Source of the DNA: Clostridia bacterium
GTDB lineage: Bacteria > Bacillota > Peptococcia > Peptococcales > BICA1-8
NCBI GenBank assembly: GCA_012720075.1
Contig: JAAXZE010000007.1
Location: forward strand, 465 to 64,464
DNA length: 64,000 bases
Reading direction: 5' to 3'
The translations under genes were made by a program, and so were the position numbers. The notes under the pieces were generated by a model. The model did not search any database, was not told where the DNA came from, and saw only the letters and a program-made list of their open reading frames with translations. This document shows, piece by piece, positions 1 through 63,533 of the stretch. Each line of letters starts with the position of its first letter. Within the stretch, counting starts at the first letter, position 1.

Positions 1-1503
1 GGGCTCCATCAGGCTATTGAGGCTAAGGAAGGGGTAAAAATTGAACGGGAAACCCAAACGTTAGCCCCCATTACTTTCCAGAATTATTTTAGAATGTATA
101 AAAAAATCAGCGGGATGACCGGTACCGCTAAAACAGAAGAAGAAGAATTTATAAAAATTTACGGGATGGATGTTGTTGTTATTCCCACCAATAAGCCTAT
201 GATCCGGGAGGACAAACCTGATGTGGTTTATCGAACGGAAATGGGAAAATTTAATGCTGTTGTCAATGAAATAGAAAGACTATATAAACGAGGACAGCCG
301 GTACTGGTAGGTACCGTTTCTATTGAAAAATCAGAGCTTCTGAGCGGCCTTTTGAAGAGAAAGGGTATTCCCCATCAAGTATTGAATGCCAAGTACCATG
401 AGCAGGAGGCCGAAATAGTAGCCCAAGCAGGACAAAAGGGCATGGTAACAATAGCGACTAACATGGCCGGCCGGGGTACAGATATTGTCCTGGGACCGGG
501 GGTTAAAGAGCTGGGCGGTTTGGCTATTATTGGTACGGAGCGCCATGAAGCCCGGCGGATCGATAACCAGCTCCGGGGTAGAAGCGGCCGGCAGGGAGAT
601 CCGGGAGTCACCCAGTTTTACATCTCACTGGAAGATGACTTAATGCGTCTTTTTGGCTCGGAAAATATTATGGGGCTTATGGATAAATTGGGTATGGATG
701 ATTCCGTGCCCATTGAAAACAGTATTATAACAAAAGGAATTGAAAATGCGCAGAAAAAGGTAGAAGCCCGTAATTTCGATATCAGAAAACATGTTTTGGA
801 ATACGATGATGTTATGAATCAACAGCGGGAAGTTATATATGGTCAGCGCCGTAAAGTTTTGATGGGTGAAAATCTAAAAGAAAGTATTTTGGATATGATT
901 GAAAAGGTTGTCAAGAGGACCATCGACAACTTTGCCGGCGAAATCCCCTATCCAGAAGAATGGGATCTGGCAGGACTTTTACATGCTGCCCGGCAAAGCT
1001 TCTTGCCCAATCATAATTTAACCGTAGAAAAGTTGGCCGCTATGGAGGCCGAGGAAATCAGGGAATTCCTCAAAGAGGAAGCCTTTAAAGCCTATGAAGC
1101 CCGGGAACAACAATTAGGCGAGGATACTTTGCGGGAGTTGGAACGGCTGGTACTTTTGAAAGTGGTGGATGCCAAATGGATGGATCACCTGGATGCCATG
1201 GATCAGCTGAGACAAGGGATTTATTTAAGGGCTTATGGCCAAAGGGATCCTTTAACGGAATATAAGTTTGAAGCATATGATATGTTCAATCAGATGATCG
1301 AAGAAATCCAGAATGAAACCGTTCGCTATATTTATCGGGTCAATGTAGTGGAAAGACCCGAAGAAAGAACCGATATGGTAGAAAATAAATATGCTGAAGA
1401 GAAAGCAAAGACGCCGATTAGGTCTGAAAAAATAGGCCGCAATGACCCCTGTCCCTGTGGCAGCGGCAAAAAGTACAAGAAGTGTTGTGGAAAAGAAGCA
1501 TAA
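1..1503 (+). CDS. secA: Preprotein translocase ATPase SecA, C-terminal ~500 aa (5' end lies outside the window)
   Basis: Frame 1 is open from nt 1 ([27 protein letters not shown]) and continues into listed ORF 94..1503. Ends with the SecA zinc-finger tail [17 protein letters not shown] at 1501-1503. Confidence 0.95.
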
Positions 1504-1507
1504 CATT

Positions 1508-1545
1508 AACGTGACATAGTGTCACAGTGCCATCGTGACATCGAA
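1508..1545 (+). repeat. Repeat module A (AACGTGACATnGTGTCACnGTGCCATCGTGACATCGA), copy 1
   Basis: Near-identical 37-38 nt copy at 11062-11098. Diverged copies at 2888-2923 and, inverted, at 25355-25390. Confidence 0.85.
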
Positions 1546-1550
1546 AGTTT

Positions 1551-1700
1551 TATTGATGCATCCGATGAAAGTTAAGCTTTGAAGATGCATCTGCTTTCAA
1601 GCAAAAAGCATGATGCATCCTTTAAGCTAGCTCAGGTGCAAGTGCGTCAAGACTGTTTCACATGCATGAGATGCAACCTAAACACTGGTTACTAGGTTAC
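1551..1700 (+). repeat. Word array: palindromic GATGCATC x3 at 28-29 nt spacing, then the RBS-proximal module CCTAAACACTGGTTACTAGGTTAC
   Basis: GATGCATC at 1555, 1584 and 1612. CATGCATGAGATGCAACC at 1661-1678. The terminal module aligns with the spacers upstream of cof, uvrA and the hydrogenase operon. Confidence 0.7.
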
Positions 1701-1724
1701 TATAAGATAATTGAGGTGATTGAC

Positions 1725-2829
1725 ATGGATTTTGAAATTAATCGGGAATTGGAAATAGCTGCCAAGCGTGTTAAAGATTTGAGGGATTCACTTTGACCTG
1801 CCTAGTAAATTAAGGCAGATTGAAGAATTGGAGCATAAAGTGGGTCTTCCTGATTTTTGGGATGACCCTGAAAAGGCCCAAAAAACTATGCAGGAGCTTA
1901 CAAAATTAAAGGATAAGGTGGAACAAATCAACAGGTTGGAGCGAAAGCTGGAGGATATAGAAGTTCTTTACCAATTAGGAAGGGAAGAAGGGGAGGAGGT
2001 AGTTGCCTCTGAAATTACTGAGGAACTTGAGGAATTAAACAATCTTTTGGAAAAAATGGAGTTAGAGACTCTCCTTAATGGTAAATATGATCGAAACAAT
2101 GCCATTTTAACTTTACATCCCGGAGCCGGAGGTACAGAGTCCCAGGATTGGACGGAGATGCTATATCGGATGTATACCCGGTGGGCTGAAAGTAAAGGCT
2201 ATCGGGTGGAAGTTTTGGACTATCTTCCGGGTGATGAAGCCGGTATAAAAAGCGTAACCATCTCTATTGAAGGAGAAAATGCTTACGGTTATCTGAAAGC
2301 CGAATAAGGGGTTCATCGATTAGTTAGGATTTCGTCCTTTGATGCTTCAGGTAGGAGACATACGTCTTTTTCGGCTGTGGAAGTTATGCCGGAAGTCAAT
2401 GACGAAACAACTATTGAAATTGACCCCAAGGATTTAAAAGTTGACACCTATCGTTCCAGTGGTGCCGGCGGACAGCATGTCAATAAGACCAGTTCGGCGG
2501 TTCGGATTACCCATATTCCCACAGGAATCGTTGTTCAATGTCAAAACGAACGGTCCCAGATAAGCAATCGGGCTACGGCAATGAAAATTTTGCGTTCCAA
2601 ACTGCTGGAATTACAAATGAAGGAAAAGGAAAAAGAATTGGCCCAACTTAAAGGAGAACAGCAGGAAATAGGCTGGGGCAGCCAGATTCGTTCCTATGTA
2701 TTCCATCCCTACAGTTTGGTTAAAGACCATCGTACCGGAGTGGAAAAGGGCAATGTCCATGCCGTTATGGACGGAGATTTAGATGATTTTATTACCGGAT
2801 ATTTAAAAATGCAGGCCTCTCAACAATGA
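1725..2829 (+). CDS. prfB: Peptide chain release factor 2 with the programmed +1 frameshift, but interrupted by an in-frame TAA (2305-2307). A pipeline would call this a pseudogene.
   Basis: ATG 1725 follows a GAGGTG SD. 22 codons are followed by CTT TGA C (1791-1797). The +1 frame then joins listed ORFs 1828..2307 and 2377..2829, which share one frame. GGQ motif [11 protein letters not shown] is present. TAA replaces the Lys of the conserved YLKAEKGVHRLVR, and ISSFD sits where RF2 has SPFD. Confidence 0.85.
1782..1797 (+). promoter_or_regulatory. prfB autoregulatory +1 frameshift site (SD-like AGGGA, then CTT TGA C)
   Basis: Sequence AGG GAT TCA CTT TGA C. The zero frame stops at TGA 1794-1796, and the +1 frame (GAC from 1795) is open and encodes RF2. 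Confidence 0.9.
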
Positions 2830-2846
2830 GAGATCCTGCTTTTTTT
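2811..2846 (+). terminator. Putative intrinsic terminator after prfB
   Basis: GCAGG..TCTCA / TGAGA..CCTGC imperfect hairpin overlapping the stop codon, followed by TTTTTTT. Confidence 0.55.
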
Positions 2847-2887
2847 ATAATATTGGTCATGTGTCCAATGGTCAGTGATTAATATTT

Positions 2888-2923
2888 AGTGTCATCGTGT
2901 CACCTTGACGCCGTGACATCGAA
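2888..2923 (+). repeat. Repeat module A, diverged copy, forming the first module of the composite element 2888-3043
   Basis: AGTGTCATCGTGTCACCTTGACGCCGTGACATCGAA aligns with the module A copies at 1508-1545 and 11062-11098 and, inverted, at 25355-25390. Confidence 0.75.
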
Positions 2924-3043
2924 AATTTATGAAAAATTGGAATGGTTGGCGTCATGTTAATGTTAACCTTAACTATAACTTCAGCCTCAATCTTTAACCT
3001 AGCAAAGCAAAACCTAAACTTTTTTTAAAACTGTAGCGCCGAC
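2888..3043 (+). repeat. Composite intergenic repeat, module order A-E-B-C
   Basis: Collinear over about 150 nt with the reverse complement of 25240-25392. Shared modules: GTGTCACC..GACGCCGTGACATCGAA, AAATTGGAATGGTTGG, and CTCAA.CTTTAA.CTAGCAA.GC. Confidence 0.85.
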
Positions 3044-3067
3044 ATGGGGAATAACTGAAGAGCAAAA

Positions 3068-3712
3068 TCAGTAAGCCGTTAATGGTATGTTACACAGTTC
3101 CACATGATATCGGCTGACTTTTTTCACGTATTTTTGGGGCAAGGATAAATCCTGGCGCAGTTTATTATCCACATAAGTTTCGCCGGCATTATAAGCGACA
3201 AGGACTTTTTCTAAATGGCCGTCGTAACGGTTGAGCAAACGTTTAAGAATATAGGTTCCCATTTGAATATTGGTATCGATATTAAATAGTTCTTCCCTGT
3301 TTTGGGGAGGATTTATGCCCATAAGCTTGGCCCAGTAGGGGGCATATTTATAGCGAATTTGCATAAGACCTGTATCATCAAGGGTACCTTTGCATAAGGG
3401 TTTAAATTGGCTTTCAGCGGCAATAACCGAAATAATCAGATTTTCCGGTACGTTGTACAAGGCGCTATATTTTTCAATGGCAGCAGCAATCAACTCAAAA
3501 GTTTCATCATCTAATTCGGGGTTTAATCTTTTTACCAAGGTCACAAATTCTTCATCGGACAAAAGTTTTGGTGGCTGCTTTTTGGGTGTCGGCTCGTGTT
3601 TGGGTAAGTGTAAGCTGTCATCGGCAACACCTTGGCTCGAACACCCGATGGAAGTAACCGCCAAAAGCAGCGATACCCCCACTGCCAAGGCCTTGCGTCT
3701 TTTTTTACACAT
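3068..3712 (-). CDS. Lytic transglycosylase (SLT domain) lipoprotein
   Basis: Lipobox LLLAVTSIGCSS. SLT catalytic region AAESQFKP..GLMQI..YNAG. ATG at 3712 lies 8 nt after a GGAGG SD; the listed ORF begins 2 codons earlier at a TTG. Confidence 0.85.
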   Translation of the reverse strand: MCKKRRKALAVGVSLLLAVTSIGCSSQGVADDSLHLPKHEPTPKKQPPKLLSDEEFVTLVKRLNPELDDETFELIAAAIEKYSALYNVPENLIISVIAAESQFKPLCKGTLDDTGLMQIRYKYAPYWAKLMGINPPQNREELFNIDTNIQMGTYILKRLLNRYDGHLEKVLVAYNAGETYVDNKLRQDLSLPQKYVKKVSRYHVELCNIPLTAY

Positions 3713-5484: not shown

Positions 5485-5494
5485 TTACTTACGG

Positions 5495-5765
5495 GTAAAT
5501 TTATTGGGTCTGATAGTACTCAAGAGTTGAGATATTGCGTCTGACATCTCCTCAATGGTTATATTTTTGGTCTGACAATATTAATTGGTTAACATTTTGA
5601 CCTTTAAAATAGAACGATTTGTATATGTGTATAATTAAATTTTATCAGACGCAAAAGATTGCCTTTTAGAACTTTCTAACCCATGAGTTAGACATCCTGG
5701 CAATTGTCAGACGCAAAAGATAGGCTTGTAGACAAATTATCTGACCCGCAAGATAGACCCTTAAG
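5495..5765. repeat. Palindromic word-array element (GTCTGA / TCAGAC words) inserted between the two transketolase subunit genes
   Basis: GTCTGA at 5508, 5539 and 5570 (31-nt period). The inverse TCAGACGCAAAAGAT is at 5645 and 5707 (62 nt apart), around an AT-rich centre. The right end GACCCGCAAGATAGACCC matches the ends of the uvr spacer elements. Confidence 0.8.
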
Positions 5766-5790
5766 ATAAAAGAAACGGAGGTTTTAATAT

Positions 5791-10994: not shown

Positions 10995-11148
10995 CTGTAG
11001 CTACAGTTATTAAGGTTAAGGTTTCGCTGCGCTAGGTTAAAGGTTGAGGTTAGAATACAAAAACGTGACATTGTGTCACCGTGCCATCGTGACATCGATT
11101 TTCAGTTGGGAAAGTTGGAATGTAATTCTCAACTCTCCATTCTCAATT
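10995..11148. repeat. Composite intergenic repeat, module order C-B(rc)-A-E-D(rc)
   Basis: CTGTAGCTACAG palindrome at 10995-11006. B module at 11010-11052. A module at 11062-11098, nearly identical to 1508-1545. D module at 11125-11148 is the reverse complement of 17671-17699. Confidence 0.85.
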
Positions 11149-11193
11149 ATTTCTTCTATAGCCACCAGCCAATCCAGAAGGGGGAGCTCTTTA

Positions 11194-12435
11194 TTGGTTT
11201 TTTTAAAGCTTATCCCTATGATTTTTTATAATCTTATATCCCTTTTTGGCCAGCCTATTTTTTGGCTTGTTGTGTTTATTATTTGGTTTCAGTTTAGGCG
11301 AATGGCTAAAATGAAGAGTGAGTTTTTTAATGTGCCGGAAGAAAGTGTACTCCGCCCTACCATTATTGCCACTGCTTTTGGAATTCTTGGCGGAGTGATT
11401 GGGAGTTTTGTCCTGGTTTTTGTAGGGGTTTCCGTCTTAGAGGTAGGGATTCAGTATCTGTGGGTGTTGGCTATTCTTTTTATGCTTATTGATCAGAGGT
11501 TTATGTGTTTTGCATATGCAGGGGGCATGGCCTCCATAGTAAACTATTTTTTTGGTTATCCCAATATCAGCATTCCCCAGGTTATGGCTTTAGTAGCAGT
11601 TCTTCATTTAGTGGAAGCATTGCTCATATTGTTAAGCGGGCATTTGGGCGCGGTGCCCATTTATGCCAAAAGTAAAGACGGCAGGCTGGTAGGGGGCTTT
11701 AATCTACAAAAATTTTGGCCCTTGCCTATAGTTGCTATGGTGGCTGTAATAGTTCCTGAAACAAATATTTTTTCTGATGTGATTAAAATGCCGGAATGGT
11801 GGCCCTTGATCAAGTCCAATCTGCCTGCCGACAACGACAACCTGCTTTACATGATGGTTCCTGTTATTGCCGGCCTTGGTTATGGAGATATCACCCTGAC
11901 TACCCATCCCCGGGAAAAAAGCCGTTATTCTGCTTTTTTCCTGGCTGTGTTTAGTATTATTCTTTTAGGGCTGGCTGTACTTGCCGCTAATTATCCCCGG
12001 TTGGCCATTTTAGCCGCTCTATTTGGCCCATTAGGTCATGAATTGGTAATTTTTATTGGAAGATATCGAGAATTTTCCCGGGAGCCTAAATTTGTCAGTC
12101 CACCCCAAGGTATTATGGTTCTTGATGTCTTGACTTCTTCTCCCCTTAGTTCGGCCGGTATCGGACCAGGTGATATAATTTTGTCCATTAACGGGATGGA
12201 AGTAAATAACAGTAACGATCTGGAATATGCCCTCCTGTTTGCCGGAAGTACCATTGAAATCCAGTATTTTTCGGAGCAAAAGAAAGTACTAAAAACGAAA
12301 AACATTCAAGGCGTAATGCCCGGAAAACCTTTGGGTTTAATAATTGTTCCGGACAATTATGGTTTTTCTTATCTGGATATTTCCCGAGGAGAAGGATTTT
12401 TCAAAAGATTAATGAAAAAGTTAAAAGGCAAGTAA
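11194..12435 (+). CDS. Polytopic membrane protein with a C-terminal PDZ domain
   Basis: Multiple TM helices, then PDZ (GIGPGDIILSINGMEV). Listed ORF 11044 extends upstream across the repeat element. TTG 11194 lies 7 nt after GGGGGAG; ATG 11218 is an alternative start. Confidence 0.75.
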   Translation: MVFLKLIPMIFYNLISLFGQPIFWLVVFIIWFQFRRMAKMKSEFFNVPEESVLRPTIIATAFGILGGVIGSFVLVFVGVSVLEVGIQYLWVLAILFMLIDQRFMCFAYAGGMASIVNYFFGYPNISIPQVMALVAVLHLVEALLILLSGHLGAVPIYAKSKDGRLVGGFNLQKFWPLPIVAMVAVIVPETNIFSDVIKMPEWWPLIKSNLPADNDNLLYMMVPVIAGLGYGDITLTTHPREKSRYSAFFLAVFSIILLGLAVLAANYPRLAILAALFGPLGHELVIFIGRYREFSREPKFVSPPQGIMVLDVLTSSPLSSAGIGPGDIILSINGMEVNNSNDLEYALLFAGSTIEIQYFSEQKKVLKTKNIQGVMPGKPLGLIIVPDNYGFSYLDISRGEGFFKRLMKKLKGK

Positions 12436-17630: not shown

Positions 17631-17799
17631 TAGTGTTTTAGTGTGTGAGTGTGAAAGTGTGTAAGATTAGTTGAGAATTGAGAATGAGAGTTGAGAATGT
17701 TCCTTTCCACTTCTTCCAACAATCCATTTTTTCAGCTAAATATATTAACCTTAACCTAGTGAAGCGCAACCTTAACCTTAAAAAACTGTAGAACTGCAG
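17631..17799. repeat. Composite intergenic repeat, module order F-D-E-B-C, in the leader of the hydrogenase operon
   Basis: F GTGTGTGAGTGTGAAAGTGTGTAAG. D TTGAGAATTGAGAATGAGAGTTGAGAATG. B TTAACCTTAACCTAGTGAAGCGCAACCTTAACCTTA. C AAAAACTGTAGAACTGCAG. Collinear with the reverse complement of 10995-11148 apart from the missing A module. Confidence 0.85.
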
Positions 17800-19953: not shown

Positions 19954-19954
19954 G

Positions 19955-20290
19955 CTTTGGGGCTATTTTTGGGGTCGGCATGACGGCGTGACGTCTTTGG
20001 GGTTACAATGCACGTCAGTATGACGTCTTACAGGTTATGTCACAGGTCCGCATGACGGCCTACAGGTTATATTTTAGGTCCGCATAATGGTTTAGGTGAT
20101 AATTTACAGAAAATATTTATATTTTGCTGACCCATGATATTGGCTTGGTAGACGTCATGCTGACCAAAAAGTAGCGGAGGAGCCGTCATGCCGTCCCAAA
20201 ATGTTGCCTGTTAGCCGTCATGCAGACCCTAGAGTTTAACCCGTTAGCTGTAATGCTTGACCCTAAAAGATGACCCACTAGCTACAGGAG
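19955..20290. repeat. Imperfect palindrome of about 335 nt built from four degenerate ~32-nt units per arm (core GCATGACG / CGTCATGC)
   Basis: Left-arm cores at 19978, 20018, 20050 and 20082. Right-arm inverse cores at 20153, 20184, 20216 and 20249. Symmetry centre near 20120. Confidence 0.85.
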
Positions 20291-20299
20291 GGAATAGAC

Positions 20300-23128: not shown

Positions 23129-23365
23129 GCATGACGGCTCTAAAGCTATTCTGCACGTCAGTATTAAAACAATAACTAGCTTGATTACTACAGGCAGCTT
23201 GCGCAAAAAGTATTATAAAAAAACCGACCTAATATTTTACTTGGTAGACGTCACACCGACCCAATGTTTAACTCCGGTGACGTCACTCCGGCCTTATATC
23301 TAAACCCGTGAGCCGTCATGCTGACCCGAAAGATTGCAAAGCAGCCATCATGCCACCCAAGGGAG
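23129..23365. repeat. Second member of the GCATGACG/CGTCATGC element family, in the uvrA-uvrC spacer
   Basis: GCATGACGGC starts immediately after the uvrA stop. CTTGGTAGACGTCA (23240) is shared with 20144. GCCGTCATGCTGACCCGAAAGAT lies at 23302-23324. An internal ACTAGCTTGATTACTACAGG module lies at 23175-23194. Confidence 0.8.
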
Positions 23366-25239: not shown

Positions 25240-25392
25240 AGATTACGCCAACATTGTTGGCTATCTTACGCCTTGCTAGATTAAAGGTTGAGGTTAAGGT
25301 TAAAGGGTATTAACGTGACATCATGATACCAACCATTTCAATTTTTTTTAAGCTTTCGATGTCACGGCGTCACGGTGACACGATGTCACAAA
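25240..25392. repeat. Composite intergenic repeat, module order B(rc)-E(rc)-A(rc)
   Basis: Reverse complement is collinear with 2888-3043. Contains the palindrome GCCAACATTGTTGGC and a duplicated TTACGCC. Confidence 0.85.
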
Positions 25393-25432
25393 ATCTTTGT
25401 CATCAGTAACTATTTATAAGGGGGTGTGTGGA

Positions 25433-39799: not shown

Positions 39800-39807
39800 G
39801 ATGATGA

Positions 39808-39867
39808 GGTTAAGGTTAAGGCTAAGGTTAAGGCTAAGGTTAAGGTTAAGGCTAAGGTTAAGGTTAA
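39808..39867 (+). repeat. Hexanucleotide tandem repeat GG(T/C)TAA x10
   Basis: Ten contiguous units starting 9 nt after the gpmI stop. The unit is the reverse-complement word of repeat module B (AACCTTAACC). Confidence 0.95.
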
Positions 39868-39959
39868 GGTTTTACTTAGGTATAAAAGATATATTTTCAT
39901 TAGGTTTAGCTTTTTTGGATTATAGGTAAGCAAACATAGGGGTATAGTAAGCTAATAAA

Positions 39960-58166: not shown

Positions 58167-58279
58167 GAGGTTTAGGCTAAGGTTAAGGTTATATTGTATT
58201 TAATATAATAGCTTTATTCCTTTCTCAACCTTAACCTAGCGTAGCGAAACCTTGATCTTAATTTGTTTTAAACTGTCAC
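58167..58279. repeat. Repeat family copy (hairpin of B-module words, then modules B and C)
   Basis: TAGGCTAAGGTTAAGGTT (58173-58190) is inverted relative to AACCTTAACCTAGCGTA (58227-58243). CTCAACCTTAACCTAGCGTAGCGAAACCTTGATCTTA matches 17746-17780. Confidence 0.8.
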
Positions 58280-61195: not shown

Positions 61196-61550
61196 GGGGG
61201 TGTAATGGTTTCGACGGGGGAATTCGGTGGCTTGAGAAGCGAGTCGAGGTCGCACTGGCTCGTTAAACGTTGCACAAAAAATAAACGCTAAAAACAATAA
61301 CTTAGCTTTAGCTGCTTAATTGCAGTCTAACCTCCTACTTGCCTTTGCCTGTGGGGCGAGCAAGGGGGTCACATTAGCAGGCTACTCTTAAGTAACCGCC
61401 TTGTAGCTTAAGGGGAAACTTACAGGGCTGGCCGATGGAAATCCTGTTTGTGGGAGTTCCTGAGGCGAGATGCCAAAACACAAACTACGCTCGTAGATGC
61501 TCAGGTGGTCGATCTTCCGGACAGGGGTTCGACTCCCCTCACCTCCACCA
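61196..61550 (+). ncRNA. ssrA: tmRNA (SsrA), predicted tag reading frame GCT AAA AAC AAT AAC TTA GCT TTA GCT GCT TAA (AKNNNLALAA)
   Basis: The 5' GGGGGTG pairs with the 3' CACCTCCACCA acceptor stem, including G3:U. T-arm GGGGTTCGACTCCCC. The tag ORF ends ..LALAA-TAA. Located directly after smpB. Confidence 0.93.
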
Positions 61551-63022
61551 GCAAAGGTCACAATCGTGTCTATGTCGATTGTGTTTTCATAGACGATTAC
61601 TTTTTTAACATAAGCTTGGATGATGCGTTTTTGCTCTTCCGGGCTTTTATTTTTTATATCAGCGTCTTTTTGAAGATACTTCCGTATCATATCTTCTGTA
61701 GGTGCATGCATTTGAGCCTGTAGTTTTGCTTCCTCAAGTTTTATTGTGAGATTGGCCTTTTTAGTTTCCAACTCGTCCATTTTCTCTTTCATGGACTGAT
61801 GGAACATCCCAGCAGCTATAGCGTTCACAATATTGTTGATCTCCGTTTGCACTCCGGCCAATTGATCGGTAAACAACTTTATATCCCGATTAATCTCCTT
61901 GCTTTGAGAGGCGGCATATTCAGATATTTTCACCACCAGTCTTTCTATAGCTTCCGGGGAAAAAACATTTTCTTCAAGGTGTTTAATAACAATATTTTCC
62001 ACATAGTTTTTGTTTATCGCTTTCATATCGCAAGCCTTAGTTCTTTTCCTAGTGGAGCACTCATAACTCACATACAGGTCCTTATTTCTGCCAGCGAACT
62101 TCCTTGTCCCTGTCATGACACCACCGCATTTACCGCAGAAAATTAATCCAGATAAAAGATATATTTCTTTTGCTGAATTTGCACCCTTCTTATTCTTTTC
62201 CATACGTTTTTGCACCGCCTCCCATATTTCATCTGATATTATTCTGGGTATACCGCCCTCAATTCTGATGATTTCATCCTCGTTTTTGCTCTTGTGGTGA
62301 TTGCGCTTACCGTTAATCTTGCTGGCTGAACGATTAAATATATAAACCCCCCGGTATTTTTCGTTCTTAAGTATGTCGTGAATGCTATTTTTACCGAATG
62401 GTCTGCCGGTTTGGGTTTTATATCCTTGGCTATTTAGGACATGAATTATTTCACTGTAACCTTTTCCAGCAGCATACATTTCAAATATAGTCCGTACAAT
62501 ACGAGCTTCATGCTCATTGATTATGTACGTTTTGTCATTGGCAACATCGTATCCCAGCGGTGGCCTTCCACCAGTATGTTTGCATTGTAGGGCTGTTTCC
62601 TTCATGCCTTTCATGACTTCCCGCGCAAGGTTGCGGCTGTAATATTCGGCCATACCTTCCAAGACAGATTCCAGAATGATGCTTTCTGGACTGTCATCAA
62701 GGTGTTCAAGAACCGATATGAGACGCACGCTATTCTTTTTGAGCTGCCTTTTGTAGAAGGCTGAATCATATCTATCCCGAGAAAACCGATCTAGTTTATG
62801 CACAATCACAACGTCAAACAGGCCCAATGCGCTGTCTCGTATCATTTGAAGAAAACCAGGCCTGTCATCCGTTGTGGCTGATTTGGCTTCATCGGTATAT
62901 ATTTTTACTATTTGCATATTATTTCGATTACAATACTCTTTTATAGCCCGAAGCTGGGCTTCAATACTTTCCTCTCGCTGATTGTCACTAGAATATCTTG
63001 CGTATGCTGCAGCTTTAAACAT
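61388..63022 (-). CDS. Large serine recombinase; its last ~55 codons are antisense to the 3' part of ssrA
   Basis: Catalytic region AAAYARYSSDNQ, resolvase domain, recombinase domain, zinc ribbon CGKCGG..YECSTRKRTKAC and a coiled-coil. ATG 63022 follows GGGAGGGG. The ORF has no stop until 61388, 163 nt into the tmRNA gene. Confidence 0.85.
   Translation of the reverse strand: MFKAAAYARYSSDNQREESIEAQLRAIKEYCNRNNMQIVKIYTDEAKSATTDDRPGFLQMIRDSALGLFDVVIVHKLDRFSRDRYDSAFYKRQLKKNSVRLISVLEHLDDSPESIILESVLEGMAEYYSRNLAREVMKGMKETALQCKHTGGRPPLGYDVANDKTYIINEHEARIVRTIFEMYAAGKGYSEIIHVLNSQGYKTQTGRPFGKNSIHDILKNEKYRGVYIFNRSASKINGKRNHHKSKNEDEIIRIEGGIPRIISDEIWEAVQKRMEKNKKGANSAKEIYLLSGLIFCGKCGGVMTGTRKFAGRNKDLYVSYECSTRKRTKACDMKAINKNYVENIVIKHLEENVFSPEAIERLVVKISEYAASQSKEINRDIKLFTDQLAGVQTEINNIVNAIAAGMFHQSMKEKMDELETKKANLTIKLEEAKLQAQMHAPTEDMIRKYLQKDADIKNKSPEEQKRIIQAYVKKVIVYENTIDIDTIVTFAGGGEGSRTPVRKIDHLSIYERSLCFGISPQELPQTGFPSASPVSFPLSYKAVT
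61559..61588 (+). terminator. Probable ssrA terminator hairpin (also a candidate recombination-site dyad)
   Basis: CACAATCG-TGTCTATGT-CGATTGTG followed by TTTTC, 8 nt after the CCA end. It lies inside the antisense recombinase ORF. Confidence 0.6.
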
Positions 63023-63065
63023 GATTTTCCCCTCCCAAAACCAGAACTGATGTTCGTATACATGG

Positions 63066-63533
63066 TTAAAAAAAATTATCAATGTTTTCTATAATTCCTA
63101 ATGGATCAAAACAAATCCAGTATTCTCCCACACGGCAGTAGATGCCGTATTTTTCTTTGTAATATTTCACAGCATCACATAGAAACCTTTCTGTTACACC
63201 TAGGTACTCTGCTAGTTCGTGTTTAGTTCTGATGCCGGCTTTGTATGCTTCCACTAGCTTGTCCAAAGGAACAAGTTTCTGGTAGGCCAAGGTTCTTGCT
63301 CTACGCTCCTGCTTACGATTCTCTATTTTTGATTGGTCTAGGATATTGCCAGCAGTAGTGTAATAATGGCCGAGTTCTTCGGCGAGAACACAGCATTTCT
63401 CTGCAGTGGTCTCTAAGTTTTTGTTTAGACCAATCACCTTATCATAATACAAACCCTTTATCTTTCCTTTCAATGGAAGGTAAACAACTTCTATGCATTC
63501 CTTTTCTGCTTCAATGAGTAAGGTTTCATGCAT
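63066..63533 (-). CDS. ImmA/IrrE-like (DUF955) protein with variant EELGH motif and a C-terminal HTH-like segment
   Basis: CCVLAEELGHYYT sits where the family normally has HExxH. TKHELAEYLGVTERFL resembles an HTH. Family assignment is from memory of similar clostridial mobile-element proteins. Confidence 0.5.
   Translation of the reverse strand: MHETLLIEAEKECIEVVYLPLKGKIKGLYYDKVIGLNKNLETTAEKCCVLAEELGHYYTTAGNILDQSKIENRKQERRARTLAYQKLVPLDKLVEAYKAGIRTKHELAEYLGVTERFLCDAVKYYKEKYGIYCRVGEYWICFDPLGIIENIDNFF

Follow-up and report, generated by a model that had tools for sequence, protein, structure and literature searches.

The secA-prfB spacer of a Peptococcales bacterium is probably a mosaic of short interspersed repeat modules

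We analyzed the intergenic spacer between secA and prfB in a stretch of 64,000 nucleotides (nt) of DNA from a Clostridia bacterium of the Peptococcales (the window), in which an 8-nt palindrome, GATGCATC, occurs three times in regular phase. We conclude that this spacer, which measures 221 nt from the secA stop codon to the prfB ATG (both gene identities were confirmed with Pfam), is probably a mosaic of interspersed intergenic repeats resembling STAR, BIME, and BOX elements and not a dedicated control element of prfB. We propose that lineage-specific repeat modules were inserted into an ancestrally minimal spacer of ~26 nt. The core is a decayed tandem array, with a unit of ~29 nt or a dimer of ~57-60 nt of the form 'GAyGCATC-T...GATGCATC-C', in which the 8-nt palindrome is the sole strongly conserved part. 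This unit is a low-copy dispersed element of the clade, and the length of the array would change locally by duplication and deletion, possibly through slipped-strand events or unequal recombination. The modules on either side (Module A upstream, and CACTAG-type heptads at the Shine-Dalgarno (SD) sequence downstream) are gained and lost between close relatives.

The clustering of the palindromic word is far beyond chance. GATGCATC has three copies in the window, with 0.58 expected from shuffles, and all three are located in the secA-prfB spacer at 1555, 1584, and 1612, with start-to-start spacings of 29 and 28 nt. A palindromic 8-mer present three times within 70 nt was found in 0/200 order-3 Markov simulations of the window, and clusters of any 8-mer arose at a mean of 0.02 per simulation (n=200). 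A preliminary description of this DNA had reported the three phased copies, and its positions agree with ours, as do its coordinates for Module A, for CATGCATGAGATGCAACC at 1661 (1661-1678), and for CCTAAACACTGGTTACTAGGTTAC (1677-1700), which ends 24 nt 5' of the prfB ATG at 1725. It had also looked to both the spacing and the flanking similarity for significance against a Markov background; the word cluster has it, and the similarity of the flanking leaders is at background level. The possibility that the cluster reflects chance or an assembly artifact is practically negligible. All that speaks for it is that exact words number just three, and the simulations speak against it, as do phased arrays in other species and the same spacer in two independent assemblies. 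These two contigs (L001 and L002; 99% prfB identity) differ from the window by 5 and 3 single-nucleotide polymorphisms over the shared DNA and are identical to it in the spacer, and therefore the sequence is not an assembly artifact.

Matches to its prfB protein assign the window organism to uncultured Peptococcales/Peptococcaceae. To place the array in its lineage, we compared the window with relatives, defined as contigs with close prfB relatives from Peptococcales metagenome assemblies. In three contigs of sister lineages (L174, L175, and L176; prfB 84-86% identical), the secA-prfB spacer is only ~26 nt long, and their tktN-tktC spacers measure 8-44 nt. Other Clostridia with adjacent secA and prfB have 12-100 nt between the two genes, and spacer lengths of 139 to 422 nt, with differing modules, occur among relatives. 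Because the spacer is so short in the sister lineages, the 221 nt of the window are a lineage-specific expansion of an ancestral spacer of ~26 nt, and the array is dispensable for secA-prfB expression. We found GATGCATC-like words in the secA-prfB spacer of three further relatives: four words in L003 (92%) and six in L010 (89%), in both cases phased at 28-31 nt, and just two words, 24 nt apart, in L008 (85%). The '...C-T' and '...C-C' types of word alternate, and it is from this alternation that we derive the dimer unit of ~57-60 nt. In the window, word 1 (1555-1562) and word 3 (1612-1619) are directly followed by C and word 2 (1584-1591) by T, all three read from the sequence without assignment to a strand. 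Decayed words continue the phase, again with no strand assigned: AGTGCGTC at 1641-1648 lies 29 nt 3' of word 3, and the segment 1661-1677 contains CATGCATG and then GATGCAAC (1670-1677), 58 nt past word 3. A scan of metagenome contigs with the prfB N-terminus returned, among the matches listed, unrelated gut Clostridia (42-50% identity) and no close relative.

In addition, the GATGCATC unit is found in other spacers. L006 has no unit between secA and prfB and carries five words, at 29-30 nt, in the spacer between prfB and an SLT-domain gene; the tktN-tktC spacer of L003 holds one dimer unit, together with CACTAG heptads. A nhmmer profile built from four dimer units recovered the L006 copy independently (E=8e-7) and found no further match in the 64-kb window. 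Since the unit occurs in the prfB-SLT spacer of one relative and the tktN-tktC spacer of another, it is a dispersed module that is not bound to a locus. The preliminary description had presented the word as different again in each spacer, and as a property tied to the locus this does not hold, given the GATGCATC arrays in other spacers of related genomes.

The upstream flank of the array is formed by Module A (1505-1547, plus strand), which consists of about four tandem 8-nt words, CGTGACAT / AGTGTCAC / AGTGCCAT / CGTGACAT, followed by CGAAAG. Tandem Repeats Finder (TRF) reports 4.2 copies of CGTGACAT with a period of 8 at 1510-1543, and the palindrome GTGACA-TAG-TGTCAC lies inside the module at 1511-1525. 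The module is genuinely a dispersed repeat: four copies, at 86-95% identity, occur in the window (1505-1547, 2884-2949, 11062-11098, and 25329-25394 on the minus strand). This bears out its earlier designation as a dispersed element and supports the earlier view of the spacer as a composite of repeat modules. Among the relatives, only L001 and L002 have Module A, and none below 99% identity does; the spacers of the other relatives bear CTACAG, GAGAAT, GGCGAG, GACTAT, or AGGTTA words instead. Judging from these comparisons, the flanking modules turn over quickly between close relatives. We also scanned 185,579 species genomes for the exact Module A pattern and obtained 0 matches, in a collection whose best prfB identity is 71% and to which neither the window organism nor its genus-level relatives belong.

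At the downstream flank, the preliminary description had proposed an RBS-proximal (ribosome-binding-site-proximal) module shared by prfB, uvrA, and tktC. Within the window this claim is not borne out: the 48 nt that immediately precede the SD in each of the three genes gave local-alignment scores of 13-16, without excess similarity, and these scores rank at 0.15-0.40 among all 1378 gene-upstream pairs, so that the leaders are indistinguishable from background and we rejected the similarity among them. At the clade level, the RBS-proximal module is real, and it is weak in the window. Specifically, an array of (A/T)GTCAC(T/C)AG heptads (CACTAG/CACTAA) stands directly 5' of the prfB SD in L003, L006, L013, L184, and L185, and directly 5' of the tktC SD in L003, L006, and L184. 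The heptads are located at 2150-2190 and 6275-6315 in L003, 9770-9800 in L006, 1-30 and 3750-3775 in L184, and ~5760-5800 in L185. In the window, the corresponding segment CCTAAACACTGGTTACTAGGTTACTA (1677-1702, plus strand) was delimited from the relatives and from the TRF repeat of GGTTACTA, which is present twice at 1687-1702; comparison suggests that ACTGGTTACTAGGTTACTA, with these two copies of GGTTACTA, is probably a decayed copy of the CACTAG heptad array. The prfB SD, GAGGTGA (1713-1719, plus strand), and the ATG (1725-1727) follow, and the SD context AAGATAAT.GAGGTGA is kept among relatives. We note that the heptads place TAG every 7 nt, which would put putative stop codons in all three frames just 5' of the SD, and that they contain TCACC, a putative anti-SD-like sequence. 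The (A/T)GTCAC(T/C)AG heptad may also resemble WATCACW, the heptad to which the omega repressor of inc18 plasmids binds.

The spacer has a clear folding potential. As a whole, it is predicted to fold at -65 kcal/mol, with z-scores of -2.9 to -3.3 on the plus strand and -4.3 on the minus strand. Words 2 and 3 together form a central hairpin (1575-1628, plus strand), identified by repeat search, fold energy, and the whole-spacer minimum free energy (MFE) structure. Its arms, 1575-1591 and 1612-1628, are 17 nt long and 82% complementary, and its inner stem, GATGCATCTGCTTT / AAAGCAtGATGCATC, is the innermost helix of the whole-spacer MFE structure. The segment 1578-1625 folds at -18.6 kcal/mol, and the imperfect palindrome at 1584-1619, with a 14-bp stem, is able to form the strongest hairpin in the window. 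Adjacent words can also be folded pairwise at -7 to -19 kcal/mol. We infer that a secA-prfB mRNA most likely includes the spacer, because no terminator or promoter is detectable in it: the plus strand contains no sigma-70-like promoter or intrinsic terminator within 1300-3100, and the CTTTAAGC sequence directly 3' of the central hairpin does not make it the GC-rich hairpin with a U-run of an intrinsic terminator. The secA-prfB operon of Bacillus subtilis is a precedent for such co-transcription. Within this mRNA, the palindromic words would pair with one another into a long stable stem-loop. This stem-loop would act in the manner of REP/BIME, BOX, or STAR elements within operons; it could protect or stabilize the secA 3' end, modulate prfB expression, or uncouple the cistrons, and it might equally do nothing of consequence.

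These properties invite the idea of a dedicated cis-regulatory RNA, that is, a prfB leader or secA 3' untranslated-region element that controls translation or processing, for example as an RNase III site, by sequestration of the SD through the GGTTACTA/CACTAG segment, or as a stabilizer of the secA 3' end. The position of the array inside the operon directly 5' of a strong SD, its stable predicted structure, the whole-spacer MFE structure, in which some of the SD region is paired with the GGTTACTA segment, the recurrence of CACTAG heptads at the SD in many relatives, and the orthologous retention of the array in three other species are all consistent with it. We nevertheless regard it as improbable, given that the ~26-nt sister spacer demonstrates dispensability, that the L006 unit lies between convergent genes 3' of the prfB terminator, and that the global fold is not conserved. 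Moreover, no Rfam match supports it: at the gathering threshold, Rfam matched only the tmRNA in the whole window, and at a relaxed threshold, 1450-1800 gave only chance-level matches with E of 4 or more. Degenerate words are likewise not compensated by changes in their partner words, with one exception, the complementary pair GACGCATC / GATGCGTC in L010. The array is most likely no dedicated prfB regulatory device, and a specific function is only a candidate. It is also no part of the conserved autoregulatory frameshift mechanism of prfB, the programmed +1 site of which (CTT TGA C, on the plus strand) was identified from the sequence at 1791-1797.

We considered several further readings of the array and rejected them. 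A coding tandem repeat does not fit, as no open reading frame (ORF) crosses the array and its periods of 28-29 nt are no multiple of 3. Seven matches to three copies of GATGCATC were found in viral contigs, mostly near-perfect 30-nt tandem repeats; in contig L181, the one match for which a spanning ORF was confirmed (DASGN... repeats), the spacings of 24-30 nt are all multiples of 3, and these viral arrays look unrelated to the secA-prfB array. Among plasmids, blastn found no sequence that matches the spacer. The preliminary description had pointed to the NsiI-type ATGCAT core of the word, and a restriction-avoidance reading finds no support, with 19 ATGCAT hexamers observed in the window for 14-20 expected and hence no depletion. 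Finally, an antisense transcript of ~185 nt over the array would be bracketed on the minus strand by a promoter-like site at 1726-1699 (ATGTCA-16-TATAGT) and, at 1526-1510, a hairpin that resembles a terminator and has a weak T tail. The promoter-like hits equal the shuffle expectation, the pair is probably due to chance, and an antisense small RNA was rejected as unsupported.

Several observations weigh against the repeat-mosaic reading that we favor. A single GATGCATC array in 64 kb is perhaps a low copy number if the module is to count as a dispersed repeat, the 64-kb window showed no candidate transposase or RAYT for the array, and neither target-site duplications nor empty-site junctions were identified. 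The fold z-scores in L010, L008, L006, and L013 are -1.6, -1.7, -0.8, and +0.3, respectively, so the global hairpin is not kept throughout, and z-scores on the minus strand are equal or better, which gives no pointer to RNA over DNA. In addition, the words are preferentially retained while the intervals drift. Over 24 units, information content is 1.3-1.8 bits per position within the 8-mer and ~0-0.6 in the flanks, the words having been picked by similarity and their phasing being independent evidence. In pairwise alignments, word identity exceeded identity elsewhere for the prfB spacer between the window and L010 (88% versus 47%, P=4e-5), for the tkt spacer between the window and L008 (91% versus 58%, P=1e-5), and for the prfB spacer between the window and L003 (70% versus 51%, P=0.05), a gap that is partly inflated by the tendency of aligners to anchor on words. 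Conservation of words across species together with free drift of the intervals hints at selection on the words, and a purely selfish or neutral model fails to explain it.

One way to accommodate such selection is to suppose that subsurface Peptococcales may possess a hitherto undescribed type of array ('regularly interspaced short word' arrays), in which a 7-8-nt word recurs every 28-33 nt, often in inverted arms, in the spacers of housekeeping operons (secA-prfB, tktN-tktC, and uvrB-uvrA). The selected words would then be platforms for protein or RNA-RNA recognition with a role in the operon or the chromosome, and not junk; we put this forward tentatively, as a possibility that we do not expect to prevail. 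A related proposal, which we find unlikely, is that the array acts at the DNA level, each 8-bp palindrome binding a dimeric regulator or a nucleoid-associated or partition-like protein, with cooperativity across the ~29-bp spacing, and that arrays at the tkt and uvr loci are equivalents with other word specificities. The conserved short palindrome amid drifting 21-nt intervals would fit this proposal, as would the regular 28-31-nt spacing over species and loci, the strand symmetry of the fold z-scores, and the inter-word segments, whose hairpin potential is not in excess of that of random intergenic 21-mers (P=0.15). The latter result also led us to reject a STAR-like conserved hairpin in these segments. 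The geometry and distribution of the words argue otherwise: 29 bp correspond to ~2.75 helical turns, which takes successive sites off one helix face, a different protein would be required for each of the three words found in the three housekeeping spacers, and sister lineages lack the array altogether. Furthermore, palindromy is lost in degenerate words without compensation, and no candidate binding protein is known.

The array belongs to a broader phenomenon in the window, where short-period word arrays abound in intergenic DNA (CGTGACAT, TTGAGAA / AATTCTC, TTAGTGTG, AGGTTA, and CACAAGT, by TRF) and where mosaic combinations of such words are also present. When we examined all intergenic regions longer than 90 nt for words phased at 26-35 nt, convincing arrays were found in no more than three spacers, each of which separates operon partners: secA-prfB, tktN-tktC, and uvrB-uvrA. 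The tktN-tktC array (5504-5760, no strand assigned) has (G)GTCTGAC words 31 nt apart on the left and reverse-complement GTCAGACGC words on the right; it recurs in L008 (85% prfB identity) with identical word and period and 4+4 words, and the content of the L003 tkt spacer is unlike it. The tktN-tktC spacer as a whole extends over 5485-5790 in the window and 13873-14201 in L008. The uvrB-uvrA array (19970-20262, no strand assigned) consists of four ~32-nt units (TTTTGGGGTC.GCATGACGG...) that carry CATGACGG, followed by four in reverse complement. The spacer containing it (19954-20299, 346 nt) is a large inverted repeat of TTTTGGGGTC.GCATGACGG.CTACAGG... units and is predicted to fold at -127 kcal/mol. 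Against dinucleotide shuffles, z-scores on the plus and minus strands are -3.3/-4.3 for secA-prfB, -4.1/-4.5 for tktN-tktC, and -5.7/-6.7 for uvrB-uvrA. The likeness in layout to the tktN-tktC and uvrB-uvrA spacers, as reported earlier, is thus confirmed, with a spacer-specific 7-8-nt word every ~31-33 nt in those two.

Yet another explanation, for which the inverted arms at the tkt and uvr loci would provide the clearest cases, is that the arrays are non-autonomous transposable elements resembling miniature inverted-repeat transposable elements, with the words as subterminal transposase-binding sites such as those at the ends of Tn7-, Mu-, and Tn402-type elements. In both the tkt and the uvr array, one arm has 3-4 direct words and the opposite arm has them in reverse complement; close relatives differ in which modules they possess, and a large serine recombinase is encoded elsewhere in the window, though at an unrelated position. 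We consider this explanation very unlikely. A separate transposase would be needed for each array with its own word, and no matching one was found; termini of the TGT...ACA type and target duplications were not recognized either, and the palindromic GATGCATC leaves its array without defined ends. Moreover, the tkt array is orthologous between distant relatives (the window and L008) and hence has not been recently mobile. GACCC(T/A)AAA / TTTTGGGGTC was also considered as a common element end and was rejected, as it is not dispersed in the window.

Beyond these arrays, the window contains further repeats and features of its genes. AGGTTA forms a dispersed hexamer array that reaches a maximum of 10.8 copies at 39807-39871, with more arrays at 58168-58191, 25284-25303, 11009-11040, and, on the minus strand, 17745-17781, 2960-3000, and 58231-58262. 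They frequently adjoin a TTTCGCTGCGCTAGGTTAA segment and CTGTAG/CTACAG words, and these modules recur in the relatives L006, L008, L013, and L174. The listed ORF 11044-12435, with a TTG start, opens within such a mosaic, in which Module A (11062-11098) comes after an AGGTTA module, and its true start is probably further downstream. The spacer 3' of uvrA (23129-23317) contains a repeat with a 32-nt period at 23223-23290 and has 13-14-nt words in common with the uvrB-uvrA spacer (TGCACGTCAGTAT and CTTGGTAGACGTCA). Upstream of the spacer under study, the 3' part of secA occupies 94-1503 on the plus strand (Pfam P-loop_SecA, SecA_SW, and SEC-C; stop codon TAA at 1501-1503). Downstream, prfB has an in-frame TAA at 2305-2307 and, 30 nt past it (2335), a change of the stop-codon-recognition tripeptide of RF2 from SPF to SSF. 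At these two sites L001 and L002, whose contigs are 99.9% identical to the window, have AAA (Lys) and CCT (Pro), and the two changes make up 2 of only 5 (versus L001) or 3 (versus L002) differences over the shared DNA. Given Lys and Pro in two near-identical contigs, the prfB of the window is either inactivated or hit by sequence errors. At the far end of the window, the tmRNA (61196-61550, 225 bits) is followed 3' by the large serine recombinase on the minus strand (61388-63082; Resolvase, Recombinase, and Zn_ribbon_recom) and, next to it on the same strand, by a gene for an ImmA/IrrE-type peptidase (63066-63533), which together suggest an element integrated at ssrA. As listed, the recombinase ORF runs into the 3' end of the tmRNA, so the real start of this gene probably lies inside the ORF.

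Among known systems, arrays of this kind share with CRISPR the regularly interspaced short palindromic repeats and the variable intervening sequence. They differ in repeat length (8 nt versus ~23-47 nt), in spacer length (~21 nt versus ~26-72), in comprising 3-6 units, in having secA, prfB, and an SLT-domain gene as neighbors and no adjacent cas genes, and in lying within an operon spacer at the same locus across species. The BOX elements of Streptococcus pneumoniae consist of boxA, a variable number of boxB, and boxC, modules of 45-59 nt that are conserved over their full length; they are intergenic, often co-transcribed, and have strong predicted secondary structure. By this description, the secA-prfB spacer is similar in its left module, variable tandem internal units, and right module, and it differs in that only 8 nt per unit are conserved and the array is not always accompanied by the same flanking modules (L003 has no Module A). 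REP hairpins, in turn, may stabilize upstream mRNA. The REP/BIME elements of enterobacteria and the REPINs of Pseudomonas are imperfect palindromes of ~35 nt that cluster in operon spacers (PMC3116915, PMC3686654). The likeness to these lies in the combination of word, 20 nt, and word (36 nt), which falls in the range of ~20-40 nt for a hairpin-forming REP-type palindrome, in the position of the arrays inside operon spacers, and in the mosaic with linker modules. The differences are that the GATGCATC unit has no conserved GTAG/CTAC tetranucleotide, a hallmark of REP at the 5' end of the palindrome, and carries information only in GATGCATC (CTACAG words occur in other modules of the relatives, not in this unit), that the copy number seen within 64 kb is low (one array; REP-type elements have tens to hundreds of copies per genome), that no RAYT gene was seen in the 64-kb window, and that its units are tandem and not strictly alternating.

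If the mosaic reading is correct, these uncultured Firmicutes of the subsurface possess a rich modular system of intergenic repeats particular to their clade, the modules of which can expand an operon spacer from ~26 nt to 140-420 nt. We found nothing in the literature on repeats in Peptococcaceae, Desulfotomaculum, or Desulfosporosinus. Such arrays can be misannotated as CRISPR-like repeats or regulatory leaders, and they could be used as strain-typing loci. The closest described analogue is provided by the STAR elements of Staphylococcus aureus, reportedly described by Cramton and colleagues in 2000. STAR elements are built on a motif of 14 nt in direct repeat, T(G/A/T)TGTTG(G/T)GGCCC(C/A), with variable, locus-specific spacers of ~40 nt that carry a covarying stem-loop; the motif occurs at untranslated-region or intergenic sites of housekeeping genes (hprK, gapR), with a 'start signature' upstream and local expansion and contraction, and is lineage-specific and in some contexts transcribed and structured, its function and propagation being unknown (Purves et al., 2012, PMC3532100; Mediati et al., 2023, bioRxiv 10.1101/2023.05.16.541063). 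The secA-prfB array is itself not a STAR element: the motif has 0 matches in the window even at 1 mismatch, the host clade is different, the word is an 8-nt perfect palindrome at intervals of 20-23 nt versus a 14-nt motif at ~40 nt, and the inter-word segments have no excess hairpin potential, unlike the STAR spacers with their stem-loop. The two nevertheless share an intergenic short conserved motif at regular intervals with poorly conserved intervening sequence, a module 5' of the array (the 'start signature' being comparable to Module A), copy-number change at the locus, and a lineage-specific distribution. The secA-prfB array would be a second independent case, after staphylococcal STAR, of a very short motif that is kept while its intervals drift, which would sharpen the question of how such elements are maintained and spread.

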